Below are positions 28,260 to 41,104 of a stretch of DNA of 53,987 nucleotides, piece after piece; within the stretch, counting starts at the first letter, position 1, and each line of letters starts with the position of its first letter. The notes under the pieces were generated by a model that worked only from the letters and a program-made list of their open reading frames with translations, searched no databases and was not told where the DNA came from. The stretch spans positions 1 through 53,987 of the forward strand of contig KE560824.1 of the NCBI GenBank assembly GCA_000442015.1, in the 5' to 3' direction. This DNA is from Rozella allomycis CSF55. Taxonomy: Eukaryota. Position numbers and translations under genes: made by a program.

Positions 28260-28626
28260 AAATAAAACTTATCAATTTCTATAAATATTAATGTATTCAG
28301 AAATCTCTCTAACGAAGCTTCTTACCAATTCCATATCGACTATAATGTAAGCCCATTACTTCCACAATTGTTACCCATTGGCACCAAATGAGACATCATT
28401 GGGGTTTTCTAACCTTTTTCGCATAATAAATGATAATGTATCCTTGGCTATGACCTGATCATTAGGTAAAACAAAGATATTTGAATATCGAGTAAATTAA
28501 TAAACAAGAGACACAAGACATTATCAATTCGTATTCTTTCAATAGCGAAAGTAGCGTGAAAACTAAATATACCGTTAATGATTGTTTACAGTAACTTGAT
28601 CATGTGCGTTTTGTTTATTTTTGAAT

Positions 28627-29925
28627 ATGTTCATCCGAACTTGTCTGTTTTGGATCATATACTATTGTATCCCAGTTTTCAACAAAACTTACCGCTATTC
28701 TGAAATATCTTACGAGAATCAACATTTGTTGCAAAACCCGGAAAGGGGATTCTTTGATTTCAATAGCGTAGGATCCAATCTGACGTCCCTCTTGGCATTC
28801 CCAAATAATACTTTAATACATAGGAATTATAACATTGACACGTATCCTTTAAATGAAACCTTTCATATGAGGGTTCAATTTGACATAGATAGGATCCGAC
28901 AACAAGGGAAAACGTTACTTATTTCATTCTCCTTCACAAAGAAAATATTCAGACTGATTTCAAGATCAAAGACGATTGCATTTTCTTTATCCAAAATAAT
29001 TAACGAAAATGCAGATGTGGTTACATCCATATTGCCATTTTTTGATCACAACGGAAATGTCGCATCAAACTCATATAAGATCAGCAAAGAGCTACTTACA
29101 CATGTTACATTGAAACGTTCCATTAGTGCTACATCAGTTAAGGATAAGCAAATGCTGACTAAAACTGTTCTGGCTTTGAACGAGAAAACGGCATTCAACG
29201 AAAATCTTGAATCTGCTAGAGTGCACATTTTTAATCATAAACTTCTTTCTTCTCTAAAAATGGAAAAGCATAAATTCTTTATTTCAGATAATGGTACATA
29301 CAACTCTCTGAAGGAACGTGATTTTCATCAAAGAGATTCATTGTACGGCTTGACTGGAGGGGTTGTACGGTTTAAAAACAATTTAACTAACTGCAAAACT
29401 GTCGTGGAAGAACTTAGGAGATTTCATTACACTTATGTTTCCACGCCGTATGAAGTGAAGCAGGAATGGAAGCATCAAGGCTGTCTTTCATTAATATCAG
29501 GAAATTTAGGCTATAGGTTTGTTTTGTTAGAACTAAATAGTACCCAAACTAAGGATTCTGTAGTTATTGCGTTTCGGGGGCGAAATTCCGGCTTTGCGTC
29601 TATATATAATAAGAAACTTTTTAGACTAGTCGCCAGTTCAGCGTCAACATATTGTAGTTTAGAACTTGACATTGACGTGAGACGCTGGAAACCGGGAAAG
29701 TTCTTTTCTGAAAAAATCTCAGTATCATTTCCTACAAGAATGAAGGAGGATTTGACATTTTCAATACTAATCACTGATGAATTACAACAATCTACATCCA
29801 GTAACATTGTTTTCTCCAACTCCGAGTCACTGGACTTGAGCACTAGACTTAACTTGCTCTTCACTGAAAGTGTTGACTTGGCGCCTGCACCCAGTGCAAT
29901 GAATTTAATGGCATGCATCAGTTGA
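28627..29925 (+). CDS. Secreted DUF4874/DUF4832-like protein
   Basis: NPERGF, FHYTY..W...GC...I..NLGYRFVL, NSGFASIYN, DVRRWKPG; intronless, hydrophobic N-terminus. Confidence 0.7.
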   Translation: MFIRTCLFWIIYYCIPVFNKTYRYSEISYENQHLLQNPERGFFDFNSVGSNLTSLLAFPNNTLIHRNYNIDTYPLNETFHMRVQFDIDRIRQQGKTLLISFSFTKKIFRLISRSKTIAFSLSKIINENADVVTSILPFFDHNGNVASNSYKISKELLTHVTLKRSISATSVKDKQMLTKTVLALNEKTAFNENLESARVHIFNHKLLSSLKMEKHKFFISDNGTYNSLKERDFHQRDSLYGLTGGVVRFKNNLTNCKTVVEELRRFHYTYVSTPYEVKQEWKHQGCLSLISGNLGYRFVLLELNSTQTKDSVVIAFRGRNSGFASIYNKKLFRLVASSASTYCSLELDIDVRRWKPGKFFSEKISVSFPTRMKEDLTFSILITDELQQSTSSNIVFSNSESLDLSTRLNLLFTESVDLAPAPSAMNLMACIS

Positions 29926-30171: not shown

Positions 30172-30707
30172 ATGAAAAGAATAAAATCATATGCCAACTA
30201 TGACAGTAAAAACGAAAAAAAGTATACATTATAGACGTAGTAGTTGATCGCCCAAAGTATCGAAATGGCAAAATACTAACTGCCGTAAAAAGCTATACGG
30301 TTTGCGATGAATCGAGGTAAAGACATCCATTAATTGGCTAGAGGTATCTGTACATTGATAATGTACCTTCTTACAATGTATTCGACGAACTAATCAAACT
30401 CTTCAGTCTTCATGGAGACATCACTGAATACAAAAAGTTAGAAACCGCTGAAGCAAGAGACAAGTTTAGCGATGTAGCATTATTGAAATTTGAAAATATT
30501 GAAGATGCAAGGTAATTTATAAAAATACCCTGTTTTAGGAATGCTAAGATCTCACTTGATGATGAAGATTTTTACGGATGCCCGTTGAATGTTCGATATG
30601 CACCAGAATTTGAATCAATCGAAGAAATAGAAGATAAATTAAAACAAAGAAAAGATTGTCACCTCATACATCTTAGCAAAACTACGAATAAAAATTGTAA
30701 TTCTTGA
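30172..30707 (+). CDS. RBM48: RNA-binding motif protein 48 (minor spliceosome factor; not in ORF track)
   Basis: Spliced (3 introns, 27-29 nt): RPKYRNGKILTAVKSYTVCDESRYLYIDNVP...AKISLDDEDFYGCPLNVRYAPEFESIEEIEDKLKQR. Confidence 0.85.
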
Positions 30708-30714
30708 TCAAAAA

Positions 30715-30770
30715 CTCTTCGTCGGGGAATCGAACCCCGGTCTTCCGCGTGACAGGCGGAGATACTCACC
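30715..30770 (-). tRNA. tRNA-Asp(GTC), 3' 56 nt, variant copy cut at gap
   Basis: Matches the 34010-34081 copy except at 2 positions; T-tract terminator follows; 5' 16 nt missing next to N 30772. Confidence 0.85.
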
Positions 30771-31023
30771 TNACGTCTTCTCTGTTACTACCAGGGTTAA
30801 ACTGGCTTAGTCCTGTTACTAGTTACTGGTTTCTTGCGACTAGCGTTTCTAGTACCACTATGTAAAAGGTGCTAACGAAGAAAATTTTAGAATTTTCCCT
30901 TTATTCAACAGGTCCAAAACCCTCGAAAATGGCCTAAACATTAAGTTTTTAGTTTCAACTTTCAAATTAAATATAGTAAGTTATTTTTATTTATATATAG
31001 GTCTCCTAACTGTTTTATCTACC

Positions 31024-31779
31024 ATGGAAGAGCAAAACATTGAAATCATCGAGGAAGAATGCATATCTCTTTCCGATTCGGATGATGAAGCCGAAATTAA
31101 AAACGCAAGAGCCCAAATAGCGTCGTATTCAATTAAAGAGATTAAAACACTCTTGAAATCAATGCTTGTTGTTTCACCAAAAGGAATTGGTAAGAACCAA
31201 TTAAATGACTTGGCAATTGACAAATTAAAAAGCATGAAGCAATATAAGCTTTCCCAATTCATTATATCTATTGATGTAGGACTTCGAAACTACTGTTTTA
31301 GTATTTTTGAGAGAAATACTAGAACTCTAATAGATTTTGAATTAATTGATTTATTTGGCCCTGCTATTGTGAATATGAAAAATATTTTAATACCTATACG
31401 CAAAATTAAAAGCATTTTGAGAAAATTTAGAAAATATCAGCCTTATGTGATGGTTGCCGAGGAACAATATCTTGACTTCCAAAGAGGTAGAATTTATCAA
31501 CCATCAGTTATTGGAAGTTCATTATTGTCTTGTCTTTTAGCATTAAATGATAAATTAATCCAAATTAATCCTTCCGTTTTGGAATCATTTATAAAAAATA
31601 CAGTTGATTGTTACAAGAATATTTATTCAATAAACAAAAACATCAATGATACTTACAAGCGTAAAAAACAAAGTCATGTAGATCTGGTCCATCATTTGTT
31701 CACAGTTGGTGAAATTTCCATTTGTTTAATTATTTGTGTCATGTCTTGGCGTAAATGCGAACAAAGTAAACGAAGTTGA
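31024..31779 (+). CDS. SAP-like + RuvC-fold Holliday-junction resolvase-like protein (Ydc2/Cce1/poxvirus A22 type)
   Basis: IISIDVGLRNYCFS motif I, VAEEQ motif II, YKRKKQS motif; N-terminal YSIKEIKTLLK..G..KNQL. C-terminal DDxAD is not evident. Confidence 0.7.
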   Translation: MEEQNIEIIEEECISLSDSDDEAEIKNARAQIASYSIKEIKTLLKSMLVVSPKGIGKNQLNDLAIDKLKSMKQYKLSQFIISIDVGLRNYCFSIFERNTRTLIDFELIDLFGPAIVNMKNILIPIRKIKSILRKFRKYQPYVMVAEEQYLDFQRGRIYQPSVIGSSLLSCLLALNDKLIQINPSVLESFIKNTVDCYKNIYSINKNINDTYKRKKQSHVDLVHHLFTVGEISICLIICVMSWRKCEQSKRS

Positions 31780-33590
31780 TCTTGTTGAATACATGAGAAA
31801 TCGTAATTTCGTTGAGCCGAGAGCATATGGGCATTACGATGAGCATCATGTTCTGCCCATCTAATAAAATCATGCGAGCAAAAAGGCATCTTCTGGAATA
31901 AACTTCTAACGGAATCATTGCTTTGGATATAGACTTGTGCTGCAGTTTGAATAAACGATTTTCTATTTTCTCTTAATAATGTTAAAAAATTATATATAGA
32001 ATTAAAAGAATCAACTTCACCTTCATTTAACCCGTTAGGATTGTCATTGCCGTTGCCATCTCCATCAACTCTCGGCATGTTGTTCTGTCTTTCCCGTTTT
32101 AAAATTAAATCTTGCATAGCGGTTTCTACAAATGGAAAAACTTTTTGTAATAATATTTCTGGTACAGGCACCAACAGGTGAGGCGGTTCGTATATTTCGT
32201 CTGGGCGGTACCCAGCGCTTCCAATGATTTGGTTCATTGGAAGCTGATTCATATAGTGTGAGCTTGCAACATCCCCCTTCCAATGCAATCCAATACGAAT
32301 ATCGTCATATGACACGTCCAGTTCTTGGAGATCTCTGCAACAATTACTTCTTGCCAAGTGGACAGCTTTTCCAAAATCTTTGTCAACACACGTCAGTCCA
32401 CGTCGAAATCGTTGCAAATGACCACGATAGGAGAGTTCTCGTGTTTTGGTTTTGCCCCATGCTAGCTTCAGTTTGTTAACAAAGCTGTAGTCTGTCCAAT
32501 TCAAGTTTTTCAAATCTTTATCATAATCGAAATTATAATGAAAAAGCAACATCATGTAAAACATACAGCACACCTATTTTAACAATAATAAATTCATTAC
32601 CTTAGGATTTTCATGATGCAATATGCCGCTTTCCCGAACATCTCCAGAATTTGTTTTACCTTCATACATTAACGCAATCGCTCCGGGATATTGTAAACCG
32701 CGCTTATGAAATTTGTAATGTTGCATTTGTAAAACTTTCATGCAACGGAGTTCATCACCTCGTACTCCGGTTTGCGCCAAAAAGGCGAACATGAATGCAT
32801 CCCTAATGCCTATTCCTATTTGGTTGGCATTAGTTAATAGAGAAAATAAAATATTTTCTCTATCTTGCATCGTGTATCGCGAGTCAAGTGAAGAATTCTT
32901 GAGTACGTCTACTTTGTTAATAGCAGACAATCTCCACTTGGCCCATTTTTTCATGTGATTGCGTAACAAAACTTTCGTGTCCTGATTATATGGGTTCCCC
33001 TCATGGTTTAAATATTCTGAGGTTAAACATTGTATCTTCCAGATACGAACTAATCCAAAGGCATGTTGCTTTATGGTGCTAAATGTGAGGGGCCCACCGT
33101 TGGGTTTGACTTTATTTGAAAGGTAATTCAAATACTTAAAATAATTGACCTTAGTGATCACTTTCGACAAACCGTTGGATTCGCAATATTGGTAAAACTG
33201 CCGTTCGACATTGGTCTGCGTTCTGTGGGCTCCTTTCCGTCTCAGGCTACTTTCCATATTGTAAATGTTTTGTCGTTGACTCACCAGCTCTCTTGAATAT
33301 TCTTCAGAATCCATCATAGCAATAATATCATCGATATTGGCTATTTGTTGTTCAATTGCTTCATCTAGCCGCACATCCCCATTTTGCTGATGTACTGCAT
33401 TTTCCAAAGCATCTTCGGCGTCAATCACATCCCCGGCAGCTTCTAAAATATCCTCATCTTCATCAATTTCTTCGACATCTCCAACGCCATCATTCGGCCC
33501 AAAGTTGTCCTCGTTGTCAGAATAAAGAGCTTCAAGATCGATTTCGTAGCTTAAACTGTTGTTTGCTAAGTTATTTTCCATCTGTAACAT
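31692..33590 (-). CDS. Crypton/Ndc10-type tyrosine recombinase, ~623 aa, one 27-nt intron (32574-32600)
   Basis: TGVRGDE (R), GKTN (K), HHENPK|VC, KAVHLAR (HxxR), GLHW (H/W), SSHYMNQLP (Y), VPEILLQKVFPF. Confidence 0.88.
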
Positions 33591-33776: not shown

Positions 33777-33794
33777 AACCCCGGCCTTCCGCGT
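33777..33794 (-). other. tRNA-Asp fragment at element junction (att-like)
   Basis: 18-nt exact match AACCCCGGCCTTCCGCGT to tRNA-Asp; identity breaks at the T-loop on the element side and at N 33795 on the other. Confidence 0.8.
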
Positions 33795-34009
33795 NCTCAA
33801 GTCATGGGAAACCTTTGTTTGATCTCTCGCTTATCTCTATTCTCGACGAGCATATCGGTACAAGACGATGCTGGTGTGACCGATTTTCGGAAATATATAC
33901 CGCAAGAATAGCAAGCTGCAAGAATCAATAAGTTATTTTATTTTAAACCTATGACTGGAATATCAATCTATTTAAAAAACCATACTTTTGGCTAATAAAA
34001 AGTAAAAAA

Positions 34010-34081
34010 CTCTTCGTCGGGGAATCGAACCCCGGCCTTCCGCGTGACAGGCGGAGATACTTACCACTATACTAACGAAGA
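34010..34081 (-). tRNA. tRNA-Asp(GTC)
   Basis: TCTTCGTTAGTATAGTGGTAAGTATCTCCGCCTGTCACGCGGAAGGCCGGGGTTCGATTCCCCGACGAAGAG; cloverleaf, A/B boxes, T-tract terminator. Confidence 0.97.
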
Positions 34082-34534: not shown

Positions 34535-37500
34535 ATGGAATTTACGGTTTATCACACAATCGACTGCCTAGAAACGCGCATTGTGATAAATATTGCAGGC
34601 ATGACAAAGGAAATCGAGCTTTTCTGCAAGGAAATCGATTTATTTTTATCCAATCTTTCCAGTTACAAGTCCATCAAGGCTAAAAGTAAATCCCGAAAAT
34701 CAGAGATTTCAGATCCGCAACTCTTTACCTTTCAAAATAGCAATCAGAAATTAGATCCGCTAAAGTTTCAGTTGATTGTATCTGAATATAATTCCATGTT
34801 GAAACGTTTCAAAGGGATGGACAGGGTATTGATCTGCGAGCGGTTACTTGAAATGGGTGATGTGATGGTGGACAGGACAGGTGATTATTACATGGCGCAT
34901 ATATTGTTTTATAGTCGTGTTGAAAGTTTTGAAGATACTGCGGTGGAGGGTAAAGTGAGCAATATGCTGAGCGACAGCCTGAGTGTTGAGAATGACAATG
35001 ACGCCAATTGGTATCGATTATTGATGGTGGCAAGGATTAAAGGATATGTTTGTGAGTGGAAATGTATGAAAGATAGTAAAAAGGACAAGACTATGGAGGA
35101 ATTGGAGCTAATGATTGAAAAGATTTTACGCGTTTTTGAAGATGCCAGTAATGTAGAGGAGATATGGAATAGTTCAAAAGAGTGTGTAATTGAATGCATC
35201 GATGTGTTGATTAAAAGAAAAAGTTTAAAGGTAAGAAATGCTGAGCTATAATATAGGTTATTGAATATTTGAGGACCTTGATTGGAAATGTACCCGAAGA
35301 AGGACTTGCCGTTAGATTATTTGAGTATTACTTAAATTTTCCTTTCAGCGTGGAAAGATTGCAAGAAATGGAAGAATACATTCATGAAATGGAAAGTAGC
35401 GGCGGGAACAATTTGAACTTGTTTAAAGTGATTAAATTGGTTTATGGATTAGAAAATAACATTAAAGAATTTAAAATAGAAGAATTTAAAAATCTGGAAA
35501 AGTTTAAGACTGTAAAATTTGTCGAAGAGGATGAAGAAATACGAAAACTTTTTGAAAGGTGTTTCGCGATACAATCATTGATGGAGAAGGAATTGAATAA
35601 TTCCAAAGATATTTTTACTGCCTGCTTGTTGTATCTAAGAAAAGAAAGGAAAACGTTCATGGAAGAAATAATGAATATCTTGGAAAACGTAAGGGAGGGG
35701 TATTCAAGTGTAAACTTTTACTTGATGCGATATAAATCTTTAAAAATGGTTGAAGGACAATCAATTGTATTGCAACCTTTTGAACTGAATGAATATGAAA
35801 AGATCAAAAAAGAAGTAAAACAAGACCGCAACGTCGTTTCAAGCACGATTATGATGATTGAAGAAAACAACTTTGAGAGAAGAGTTAAATTTTCAGATGA
35901 GAAAAGAATAGAAAATATTCAAGAATTTTATAAAGATTGTTTGAAGAAGAAGATAAAGCCAAATCTATTGGAAAAGCTATTCAATGAATGCTTTAAACAG
36001 TCAAACCAAAAGATTGAATTAATCGTTGAATTTATAGAATACGTTGAAATCTTCCACTTGAATTTTGATTATTCTCTTCTTGTTTCAGATTTGTATTTTA
36101 AATTTAACAATCTGCTAATAAAGAACAATCAATTGGATTATCTTTATAAACTTTATGGTAAAAATCGACAGCGAAAGATTCTTTTATTAATAAATCTATT
36201 TCAAGAATTCAATGATGTAGTTTATTTGAAACAGGCGTTTAAAATGATTACTAAAAGACCTGATAATTTAGAGAAAAAATGTGATAGTTTTCTCATTGAC
36301 AGAATGGATTTGAATAAAATAAAACTTAAAATAAATCAATGTCCAGTTGAAACATACTATATTATGCTTCATTGCAGTGAAAAGAGTCCATTGACTATAA
36401 AAAGCAATGACTATATGGGAACGGGAATATTTATACCATTGCACTGTGAAAATTTTATTATTTCTGGATTAGCTGTTAATAAAGATTATAATATTGGCGT
36501 ATCCTTTTATGGCGTTGATTTTGAATACATTGGAAAAGCTACATGTAAATTTCACAATTCAAGTTTGTTGAGCGATGAGTTTCTTGTTTACAAGTTGTAT
36601 GAATGTAAGGGTATTGATGATATCGAGTTGAATTTGAGTGTTAAACAATTTGGAGTGAATTACTTTTTGAATTTGCTTGGCGTTAATAATGAGGATGATT
36701 ATTTTGAAAATAACAAGATGAATGATTTGAACAAGATTGTTAATTCAATGTGTGTGAATATCTTTTTGGATTATGTTTGTAAAATGGAAAATGTTTGGAT
36801 GTTATTTGTCGCCTATAAACTTAATTCGAATTTGGGAATCATAAAGAGAATATTATTAATAATGAATGAAAGTAGAATAGCAGAAGAAGAAAAGTTTCAT
36901 ATGTACTTGTTTAAATTGCATGAAATACTTTACAGGGATAAAATTCATTTGGATTATGACTATCTTTGTTTATTTGTGAATTTATCTTATATTCTAATTA
37001 ATAGAGATTCTGGAGCAATTAAAATGAGTCAAGAAATTATAATGAATTCTTATAATGTGAAAAGACAAGGATTGATTACTGGGAGTATAAATGCTCTGTT
37101 GGAATTTAGCAATAGAAAGACATTGACTGTCGTTGAAAGGACTAGGCGAATAGAGAATGAGCAAGCTATTTTTCATGTGATTAAAAGCACAACTGAATCT
37201 GATTCATCATTTGGAAACAAAATTAATGCAGTAGAATTGTTTTACGAGTATCTTTCGATAAAACAAGTAGAATTGGAAAATGATAAAGTGAAGAATCCTG
37301 AAATTGAGATTGAATCAGCTGGAAGTGTTAAAGATTTGATTGTGTGTTTGATTAACAAGGGTCCATTGGAATCCTTTAAAGAGCTTTCAAAGATTAAAGT
37401 GCATCCAAGATTCCTAGAGTTGTCAACCAGATTAGCAGAAGAAGCTTTGAAGCAGAAAGATCATTTGGCTGTCAAGGAGATTGTAGAATCTACATTGGAA

Positions 37501-40323
37501 TGGCTAGAAATTAGAAATCATTCAACGTTGAACCCCTGGACTGTTGGAGAAGACGAAGAATTGCAGAGAAACTCATTTTATGCGCGAAAGAAGCGAAGAA
37601 TTAATAAAATAAGAAATTATAGAAAGTTGAAATCCAAAAGTGAGAATGATGTTGATGTTGAGGTTGAAGAGCATTCAATTAAGAATATTAAGAGTGTGAG
37701 CGAAGATTGTAAAGAGAATACGAGTAGAGTAAGTAGAAATAGCAGTAGGAATAGCAGCGTTGATCACCAACACAGTCATTCGCAAGTTCATGGTCATAAT
37801 AATGTGCATCGAGTTGAGCATAATCATCCTAATGTTGAACATAATCATTCTAATGATATCAAGGATAAAATTAGTTCATTGATTGATAAAGCTCATAAAA
37901 TAGAAGATTTTGAAGAAAATGAAAAAGAAAAAGAAGATTTAACAGAAAAGAAAGAGATTGCTAAAAGAACGCTTAGAAAATTGTTACCTGAACTTTGGAC
38001 TAGACGAAGATTTAGAAAACAATTAAGACAAATGATTAAAGAAGAAGAATCATTTAAATCACGACTTTTGTATTGTTATGCTACTAGTAAACTTGAACTA
38101 TTGAAAAGAGAAAATAATTGTAAATCAGACTTTAATAACATGAATTATACTTTGATTGTGAATGGAAATGATAAAATATTAAATTTTGTCACACAATGTG
38201 ATTCTGGAAATTTGCAAAATGAAGACTCCCATTTAATTTTTCATTTGCTGAATCAATCTTTAGTTTTAGCAGAGAGAAGTAATCAATTTCAATTCATTCG
38301 TAAAATTTTAATTCAATTTGTAACGATATTAAGAGATTTTAAGGATTCTATGAATAATCTATCAAAGTATGTTGAAACTTGTTGTAAATTTATTTTTACG
38401 AATAAAGTTTTTATGAATTTAATTTCAAAAGATAATTTTCCAATTGAATCTATTTTTAAAAGTTTTAATGGAATTGCAGAGGATTGCATTGAAAGGGAAT
38501 TGGTTTTGGAATTTGGGTTTTATTCTATTTGTTTGTTGAAATTGGATAATAAAATGCAAACTGCAGAGTTGGTTAAAACTTTGATGGAAAATGAATTGAA
38601 AATTTCTCTTCAAATAAACAATAAAGGAATTGAAATTCAATCTGTAAAATCATCTACTGAAAAATCTTTTTATTATTTCAATCTTGCTCAATCTACGTTT
38701 TCTTCTAATAAAAAGAAATCTTTGATCTATTTTTCAAAAGCTTTTGATTGTTGTTCTGGAATTGTGAATTCAATTCAAAAATTCATTAATCATAAAATTG
38801 AAATAAATTCTAACCAATTTAAAAATTTTAATGATCTATTTATAGCAATCTTTTCAATCTTAAAAATATCGCATGGGTATTCCAGATCTATTCAGATTTG
38901 TAACGATCTAATCTACTTGGCTATTCATTTACTTGAAATCTTGAATAAAGATCCAAGAAACAATCTTTTAAATAAATCCACAAGTTTAAATTCTTTATCG
39001 TTTACTGGCTCAGAGTACCTCTTTCATTGGAAACAAGCGTTGAATGTTCTAGTCTTGAATAACGACCATCAAAATGTTCTTTTTGTTTCAAATTATCTTT
39101 ATGGTTTATCAAAGAAATTATTAATAGACCCCAAAGAGTCTAAATTCAATTTGTTGAGAGCTCATTTGCATCTAAACCAATTAGATAAAGTGATTGATTT
39201 ATTAAATGAAAATGATTATAAATTACAAGGGTTTGAATTAAGAAATGAAATGTTCAAATTGGAAAATAATTCAATTCTAAATCTATGTGAGAAATTAGAT
39301 GAACCCGAATTGGTGGATCTATTGTATGAAATTGTTTTAAGAAATAATCCAAATAAAAAACAAGCATTAACAATCCTAAATTCTTCAGTGAATGAAAAGA
39401 TTAAAGTCAAGTGCTTAATCGTTATTGAAAATTATTCAGAAGCTCTGTCGTTGGCTTTGAATGCCCTACCCAACTCTTCACATTCTGACTATTTTTATTT
39501 TGCAAAACTCATAATGGAAATATCTTTAATTTATTCTCCTCTTCTATCACAACCCATAAATGATATCTTTGTTTTTCAAGATTTAAGTATTCTTCAAGTC
39601 TTTGATTGGAAATTTAATACCCTCGTCAATCAACCATTCGTCTATGAAAATGAACTGAATGCATTCATTCAATTCTCTCAACAACTAATAAAAAGATACA
39701 GATTTGATCCATCAAATAATTCTATTACCCATAAAGCAAATAAATTGTCAAATTCTTTAAAAGTAATAAAACAATCTCTGGTGAAGCAATTAGAATCTTC
39801 CATTAAGGACCAAAAGTCATTTGAAAATCAATTAAAAGTTTTATTGCTTCTAACTGCAACAATCAAGCAAGATACTGAAACGCTGGCAATGTCAAAATAT
39901 AAAGAAAATGCAAATATAATTTCTCAAAAATTTCTCAGTGGATCTGAATTAGTTGAATTCAATCTTTACGAAAAGTTACTGGATCCTTCATTGGTTCACA
40001 TTTCACCAACCATGCAGGCGATTATTCTATCACATTTCACGGAAATAGCAGAGAAAATTAACGATCAAATATTCCTTTACTCTTTTCCATTTGAAAATGC
40101 CCTGTTCATATGCTACAAGAATGGAAATGTCACATGTAGAATATCTATCAGAATGCAAGATCAAATACATGTTGAATGGGATGGTAACCTAATTGCTACC
40201 AAAGAAAACCCGAATCTAGACTTTGACTTGCTCAAGGACCTGCTTTCACAGCCAAATTGCTACAACGAAAGAATTCCGCAATGTCTCACAGACCTTGTTG
40301 CACAGTTACAATCAATTAAATAA
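34535..40323 (+). CDS. CFAP54: Cilia/flagella-associated protein 54-like (start uncertain)
   Basis: ERLLEMGDVMV..YYMA, NDYMGTGIFIP..ISGLAVNKDYNIGV and HPRFLEL resemble CFAP54; a 26-nt intron (35231-35256) joins the two ORFs in frame. Confidence 0.65.
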
Positions 40324-41032: not shown

Positions 41033-41104
41033 CTCTTCGTCGGGGAATCGAACCCCGGCCTTCCGCGTGACAGGCGGAGATACTTACCACTATACTAACG
41101 AAGA
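41033..41104 (-). tRNA. tRNA-Asp(GTC)
   Basis: Identical to 34010-34081; T-tract terminator. Confidence 0.97.

Follow-up and report, generated by a model that had tools for sequence, protein, structure and literature searches.

The stretch analysed here from the genome of the fungal parasite Rozella allomycis CSF55 (53,987 nt of contig KE560824.1, hereafter the window) contains a 3,295-bp unit situated in a tRNA-Asp gene, within which two genes converge. One encodes a tyrosine recombinase; the other is an open reading frame (ORF) that an earlier note on this DNA, made from the letters alone, had taken for a RuvC/Ydc2-like junction resolvase and partner of the recombinase. The features of this element, by their position in the window, are as follows.

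30710–30770, minus strand: left copy of an attachment-site-like (att-like) direct repeat, a partial tRNA-Asp consisting of the 3' 56 nt and the T-run
31024–31779, plus strand: resolvase-like ORF, ATG to stop, 251 aa
31692–31779, no strand assigned: 88 bp shared by the ends of the two convergent ORFs, the recombinase ORF (minus strand) ending at 31692
31692–33590, minus strand: CryptonF-like tyrosine recombinase gene O9G_003398, with a 27-nt intron at 32574–32600
33777–33794, minus strand: exact 18-nt tRNA-Asp fragment within the element, at a distance of 216 bp from the complete tRNA
34005–34065, minus strand: right copy of the att-like direct repeat, the tRNA 3' part and T-run
34010–34081, minus strand: complete tRNA-Asp(GTC) (ARAGORN; Rfam tRNA, 61.6 bits)

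The element is delimited by the 61-nt direct repeat, whose copies are 97% identical and spaced by 3,295 bp. An intact tRNA at one end and, at the opposite end, its 3' segment repeated in direct orientation are two of the features of tRNA-targeting elements, and both are present here. Homology within the left copy begins abruptly, near tRNA position 17, and stops after the T-run, and neither ARAGORN nor Rfam calls this copy as a tRNA. Directly outside it lies the stop codon of a host gene (at about 30705–30707) with a weak match to RRM_1 (expectation value, E, 0.0014). The interval had been described as bounded by tRNAs, which is accurate on the right, where the complete tRNA-Asp stands, but on the left amounts only to the 3' 56 nt plus the T-run. 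A repeat of this length, starting sharply inside the tRNA, is the signature of an integrated circle, which would have carried the 3' part of the tRNA.

The 18-nt fragment within the element corresponds to an internal part of tRNA-Asp, from the 3' side of the anticodon stem to the T-stem, and has four matches in the window against none expected by chance. The idea that the neighbouring segment (33795–34004) is left over from another element in tandem was considered and rejected, because this segment does not resemble the opposite end of the element. Single N bases occur in the window at 2800, 24886, 30772, 33795, 43270 and 52992; those at 30772 and 33795 stand directly beside tRNA-like segments, namely the left end of the element and the internal fragment. 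A second tRNA-Asp(GTC) gene lies 7 kb away (41033–41104) in the same orientation, with identical mature sequence and unrelated flanks. No recombinase or resolvase-like sequence is found next to it, and it would represent a free target of the same type.

The longest ATG-initiated frame in 100 mononucleotide shuffles of the window averaged 109 aa, and none of the 100 reached 251 aa. Because the shuffle maximum was 161 aa, the 251-aa ORF is a real gene and not a chance frame. It has no self-match in either protein library and therefore appears to be unannotated so far. Its 251 codons run uninterrupted, and the motifs picked out in the earlier note are all in place: SIDVGLRN at residues 82–89 (31267–31290), with D84 as the candidate first catalytic aspartate; EEQ at residues 146–148 (31459–31467), within an AEEQ that supplies the candidate glutamate (E145–E147); and the basic segment RKK at residues 213–215 (31660–31668). 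The acidic N-terminus described in the note was likewise borne out, 11 of the first 25 residues being acidic and none basic. Nucleases of the Ydc2/A22/RuvC type have an aspartate in strand 1, a glutamate after strand 4 and two aspartates in the last helix, and the layout in Ydc2 and Cce1 runs from a first-strand D motif through an E motif to a basic segment, an order that the motifs of the ORF fit. The set of four acidic residues is incomplete here: D84 and E145–E147 are present as candidates, and a DDxxD-type motif (D[DE][LIVM][ASV]D[ASC]) is missing from the ORF and from all six frames of the window, just as the note had reported seeing no C-terminal acidic motif.

The convergent gene is represented in public data by P0005 (O9G_003398 of Rozella allomycis CSF55), which is 95% identical to the read-through of the window recombinase and matches NDC10_II with 30.8 bits (cut-off 26.3). 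The R, K, H-x-x-R, H/W and Y set of catalytic-type residues is complete, in the motifs GVRGDELR, GKTN, HLAR, LHWKG and SSHY, whose residues were given their roles by eye. Three relatives of the recombinase were found, all from R. allomycis: P0005 itself, from the window locus, P0006 (56% identity) and P0007 (RKP20118.1), which is 44% identical to the window recombinase by tblastn and 52% in the multiple alignment. The motifs are invariant in the paralogues that cover them, except for a change of Y to F in P0007. At the end of P0006, a truncated protein, there is a weak match to GCR1_C (E 0.0013; 19.4 bits vs a cut-off of 23), a domain not present in the window recombinase. As judged from its sequence, the recombinase is CryptonF-like.

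The 27-nt intron of this gene is backed by a 9-residue gap relative to P0006 and by the P0005 gene model. A second in-frame GT...AG intron of 27 nt interrupts the host RRM-like gene (30512–30538), and the element gene therefore uses the unusually short intron type of its host. The public P0005 model also splices out a 20-residue stretch, LNEGEVDSFNSIYNFLTLLR, even though it is conserved in P0006, and a 5-residue stretch, VNYFK; both intron calls are probably mis-modelled.

An exhaustive phmmer search with the ORF against 1.84 billion protein representatives returned three matches, two of which are R. allomycis fragments. P0001 (RKP20119.1; 115 aa) is 51% identical over ORF residues 100–162 (E 2.6e-10), and P0002 (62 aa) is 61% identical over the ORF N-terminus (E 3.5e-07). 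The third, P0003, was discarded as an unrelated repeat protein. The C-terminal end of P0001 reads ...KQDDVADAIVQG... and includes an acidic motif, KQDDVADA, which we take to resemble the last motif of the A22 family. The genes for P0007 and P0001 (RKP20118.1 and RKP20119.1, locus tags 21689 and 21690) lie together on one other contig of 12,376 nt. It is thus supported that the pair of recombinase and resolvase-like gene recurs at a second, strongly diverged locus, known there from its proteins alone. Such recurrence refutes the reading of the ORF as a single-copy host gene and supports a two-gene unit; it is in this linkage that the proposed module of recombinase and resolvase finds its support. 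The contrast with a host mitochondrial resolvase, also drawn beforehand, holds as well, given the acidic N-terminus, the position inside a repeat-flanked unit and at least two further diverged copies: the ORF is neither single-copy nor equipped with a basic presequence. A scan of metagenome contigs with the recombinase alignment matched 271 patterns, of which none was confirmed.

The product of the ORF probably belongs to the RuvC superfamily, as a Ydc2/A22-like member, because two different methods point to the family that had been proposed beforehand. Among 38,880 PHROG families, the best match by hidden Markov model (HMM) is phrog_18317, 'Holliday junction resolvase' (E 0.0079, 17 bits), with ORF residues 80–212 aligned to profile positions 6–132 of 187. 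By language-model features, the cluster in the ESM Atlas nearest to the whole ORF is Ydc2/MRS1 (score 0.89, 186 of 256 features in common), and the ten best family-bearing matches all belong to one family or clan. When the core (residues 74–232) was submitted alone, its neighbours were virus clusters (Nucleocytoviricota) bearing Pox_A22/Ydc2/RuvC, at 0.85–0.89, so the N-terminus does not drive this result. Ydc2 of the fission-yeast type carries an N-terminal SAP domain, and the N-terminus of the ORF had been called SAP-like. This part of the proposal was not confirmed: SAP (PF02037) gives no match to the ORF in Pfam at E ≤ 10, and the domain appears only on members of the neighbouring Atlas clusters (26–45% of them).

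Searches for further homologues yielded little. A word-indexed search with the whole ORF gave 384 candidates, none at E ≤ 0.01, and one with residues 74–232 gave 59 candidates, none at E ≤ 10. In viral contigs, a scan with the ORF matched five patterns and confirmed none, and a back-translated resolvase motif hit a single locus in a phage-like contig, which was set aside as a chance match. The same verdict was reached for two records at E 5 in a tblastn search of residues 78–251 against 50,697 phage records.

The 88-bp convergent overlap reported in the earlier note is present, and the ends of the two genes suggest how it came about. P0006 aligns to the window over residues 27–575 of its 764, the alignment ending at 31716, and its residues 576–764 (189 aa) have no match in the window at E ≤ 1. 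The matching 192 C-terminal residues of P0007 have no counterpart in the window either, and the ORF closes with about 21 residues whose codons lie antisense to a conserved coding part of the recombinase. The same recombinase C-terminus recurs in another assembly of the CSF55 strain (P0008; 594/595 identical), so the junction did not arise through misassembly of a single data set. As the simplest account we infer an internal deletion across both convergent 3' ends, with a junction at about 31713–31722. Since the paralogue recombinases extend for about 190 more residues, up to a GCR1_C-like end, the overlap looks more like the scar of a deletion than like a gene overlap by design. The window copy of the element is probably defective or inactive, rather than the working module originally envisaged. 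The last acidic motif of the ORF would be either deleted or degenerate as KKQSHVDLV; alignment does not separate a deleted from a mutated last motif.

The explanation that we favour, with moderate confidence, is that the ORF belongs, as a genuine gene, to a CryptonF-like element specific to Rozella, that it encodes a strongly diverged RuvC-superfamily protein, and that the copy in the window has been internally deleted. A circle carrying a copy of the tRNA 3' part would recombine site-specifically with the tRNA-Asp gene; integration would rebuild the tRNA at one end and leave the displaced 3' 56 nt and T-run at the other. From the window copy, an internal stretch taking in both convergent 3' ends would have been lost, a deletion that would remove the coiled-coil and GCR1_C-like tail of the recombinase (about 190 aa) and also take the ORF's own end, its last acidic catalytic motif being lost or degenerate. 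Each frame would then run into the antisense of the other gene as far as the next stop, producing the overlap. A protein made from the window copy, if there is any, would at best bind junctions without cutting them. In intact copies, a nuclear protein might cut the Holliday intermediate formed by the recombinase, or might resolve multimers of the excised circle. Such an action of the intact-copy protein, in the nucleus and on four-way junctions or circle multimers, presupposes its RuvC kinship, and even on that footing we put it forward tentatively, as possible rather than probable. A more specific version seems improbable to us, namely a minimal eukaryotic integrase-plus-resolvase element, operating in the manner of tRNA-targeting islands of bacteria, in which the recombinase exchanges one strand pair between the tRNA-like site of the circle and the chromosomal tRNA-Asp and a nuclear RuvC-like nuclease of A22-like giant-virus ancestry cuts the junction. 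Such an ancestry of the resolvase gene would link Cryptons to viral integration modules.

Several results weigh against the favoured explanation. Pfam, searched at E ≤ 10, gives no match to PF09159, PF04848 or PF02075 for the ORF or for P0001, and none to SAP for the ORF; NCBIfam has no match for the ORF, and in the Protein Data Bank (PDB) neither phmmer nor a 3-sequence profile found a resolvase, only MED7 (E 0.23 and 0.037, respectively). The Atlas scores all fall below 0.9 and are a lead only by the tool's own grading. Structure prediction, which had been recommended as a check, was carried out without profit, since the two AlphaFold2 models are all-helix and unusable, with predicted local distance difference test (pLDDT) values of 41.2 for the single sequence and 37.3 for the 3-row alignment. 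The RuvC/Ydc2-like identity is thus favoured by the PHROG match and the Atlas neighbours, but has no match in Pfam or the PDB, and the RNase H-like fold of these resolvases, a five-stranded sheet in 32145 order with flanking helices, is putative for the ORF. No library protein shows all four catalytic positions together, P0001 being without the SIDVG segment, and the P0001 tail resembles the KKQSHVDLV segment of the ORF no more than chance would allow, since 36% of 2000 shuffles reach an equal score. The SHY of the window recombinase is replaced by THF in P0007, so that the second locus is decayed as well. Finally, neither the ORF nor the recombinase has relatives outside Rozella in the collections searched.

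Some of these points lend themselves to other explanations. The window copy may be intact, the ORF providing a non-catalytic accessory that binds junctions or DNA, and the short recombinase and the overlap being a functional design of a sub-family. Mrs1 is a member of the resolvase family that lost its nuclease activity, both frames in the window are open (251 and 632 codons) and interrupted only by the intron, and the recombinase retains all its catalytic-type motifs. RKKQSHVD may be a degenerate acidic motif, and the recombinase ends in the same way in the second assembly; that assembly, however, comes from the same strain and hence offers no independent evidence of function. The antisense nature of the last 21 residues of the ORF speaks against such a design, as do both recombinase paralogues, which are about 190 residues longer and have a GCR1_C-like end, the defining domain of CryptonF, and we consider it rather unlikely. 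The RuvC-like ORF could also be a mere passenger that the element picked up from its host or from a giant virus, with no part in the movement of the element. The nearest Atlas clusters of its core are those of Nucleocytoviricota, extra genes of unrelated function (a C48 peptidase, for instance) are found in CryptonF and CryptonS, and it is established that tyrosine recombinases resolve their own Holliday intermediates, as is also stated in the accessible part of PMC13465315. Yet the pairing is kept at a second locus whose recombinase is only 44–52% identical, which argues for retention through long divergence, and an element of 3.3 kb leaves little room for cargo; a mere passenger is accordingly improbable.

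It is also improbable, and by our estimate a little more so, that the ORF lacks a RuvC fold altogether and encodes a lineage-specific, mostly helical protein, with the motif resemblance due to chance and a MED7-like stretch as the sole real similarity. The missing resolvase matches in Pfam and the PDB and the all-helical models would be in line with this; models of such low pLDDT, however, carry no information, and the PHROG HMM and the language-model features, for the whole protein and for its core, both indicate junction resolvases, while the paralogue P0001 ends with a DDVAD motif. The stretch concerned (residues 109–159; 31348–31500) weakly resembles the C-terminal helix of the Mediator subunit MED7, and kinship was rejected as chance, since the E value is not significant with the single sequence or with the profile, and Pfam has no Med7 match at E ≤ 10. 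Least credible of all is a host housekeeping gene for a mitochondrial Ydc2/Cce1 resolvase beside which a recombinase element landed. The name of the top Atlas cluster, mitochondrial resolvase Ydc2 / MRS1, would suit it, but the Ydc2 Pfam model gives no match, the N-terminus does not resemble a presequence, the ORF lies inside the 61-nt repeats, and one of its further copies sits beside a recombinase paralogue.

Among the classes of eukaryotic DNA transposons, Cryptons are understood least, and analogy is the only basis for the mechanism ascribed to them. Goodwin et al. 2003 is reportedly the source cited for CryptonF DNA transposons. If our explanation is true, a tRNA-targeting Crypton-like family with a long att-like repeat supplies a defined recombination site, and the resolvase-like gene becomes a candidate second enzyme, making a pathway of circle and Holliday junction directly testable. 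The Ydc2/A22 branch of RuvC nucleases would moreover gain a setting that is neither mitochondrial nor viral. For the annotation of Rozella allomycis, the immediate result is one missed gene and introns that are probably mis-modelled. The weight of these points is limited, in that each copy so far looks damaged and all come from one species.

The window as a whole is AT-rich (about 35% G+C) and encodes a homologue of IFT122. Between the two tRNA-Asp genes lies an open frame of 1,684 aa (35269–40323), where the window is richest in AT (26–30% G+C); it has a strong positive GC skew and no Pfam match at E ≤ 0.001. To the left of the element, an ORF at 28621–29925 contains DUF4832 (E 1e-25) and a weak DUF4874. 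The pairing of these two domains is mostly bacterial, so horizontal acquisition of this ORF is a possibility.

In the literature on Cryptons, junction resolvases and Rozella, we found no module of recombinase and resolvase in the main texts as far as they were accessible, which agrees with the statement in the earlier note that the arrangement was not recognisable from described Crypton families. The survey of Kojima & Jurka (2011; PMC3212892) mentions, in its accessible portion, no extra protein other than a C48 peptidase, and is not among the Crypton papers retrieved with the terms 'resolvase' or 'Ydc2' in the text available for it. A 2022 list of target-specific DNA transposons, in the part that could be consulted, includes among Cryptons only the microsatellite-specific CryptonV. 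CryptonF is characterised, to judge from the same portion of PMC3212892, by a recombinase with GCR1_C and by short terminal direct repeats, given as 6 bp or as 4–6 bp. The Rozella element is likewise built around a tyrosine recombinase related to domain II of Ndc10/Cbf2, has a paralogue with a GCR1_C-like end, is multi-copy in a genome of the fungal lineage and has direct repeats at both ends as would-be recombination substrates. It differs from CryptonF in that its repeat comprises 61 nt of a tRNA gene instead of 4–6 bp, its target is tRNA-Asp, it carries a second, RuvC-like gene, and its window copy is without GCR1_C.

Two groups of resolvases stand closest to the ORF. Ydc2/Cce1/Mrs1 (PF09159) form the nearest language-model cluster and are of similar length (269 aa for the cluster vs 251 aa for the ORF). 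The ORF nevertheless has no PF09159 match, begins with an acidic N-terminus, is multi-copy and element-borne, and has no last acidic motif. The poxvirus A22/Nucleocytoviricota group (PF04848) supplies the nearest clusters of the ORF core (74–232) and, like the ORF, is encoded by mobile or viral genomes rather than as a housekeeping gene; in this case the ORF is without a PF04848 match, and it is borne by a recombinase element of 3.3 kb where the A22 group has large viruses. The A22 protein resolves replication concatemers of linear genomes, according to the accessible part of PMC13236599.

With regard to integration, the Rozella element resembles those mobilised by the tRNA-targeting integrases of prokaryotic phages and genomic islands: it is inserted in the 3' part of a tRNA, the tRNA is regenerated, its 3' segment is repeated at the opposite end, and the gene for the recombinase adjoins the intact tRNA. 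Unlike these, it resides in a eukaryotic host, encodes a Crypton/Ndc10-like recombinase whose gene has a spliceosomal-type intron of 27 nt, and shows no excisionase-like gene. The nearest parallel to the pairing of recombinase and resolvase is provided, as far as the accessible text of PMC13236599 goes, by the endogenous phaeoviruses of Ectocarpus, which are also integrated eukaryotic elements with a tyrosine recombinase and an A22-like resolvase. In contrast to the Rozella element, which consists of essentially two genes, these viruses have giant genomes with hundreds of genes, and their resolvase is discussed for its role in replication.

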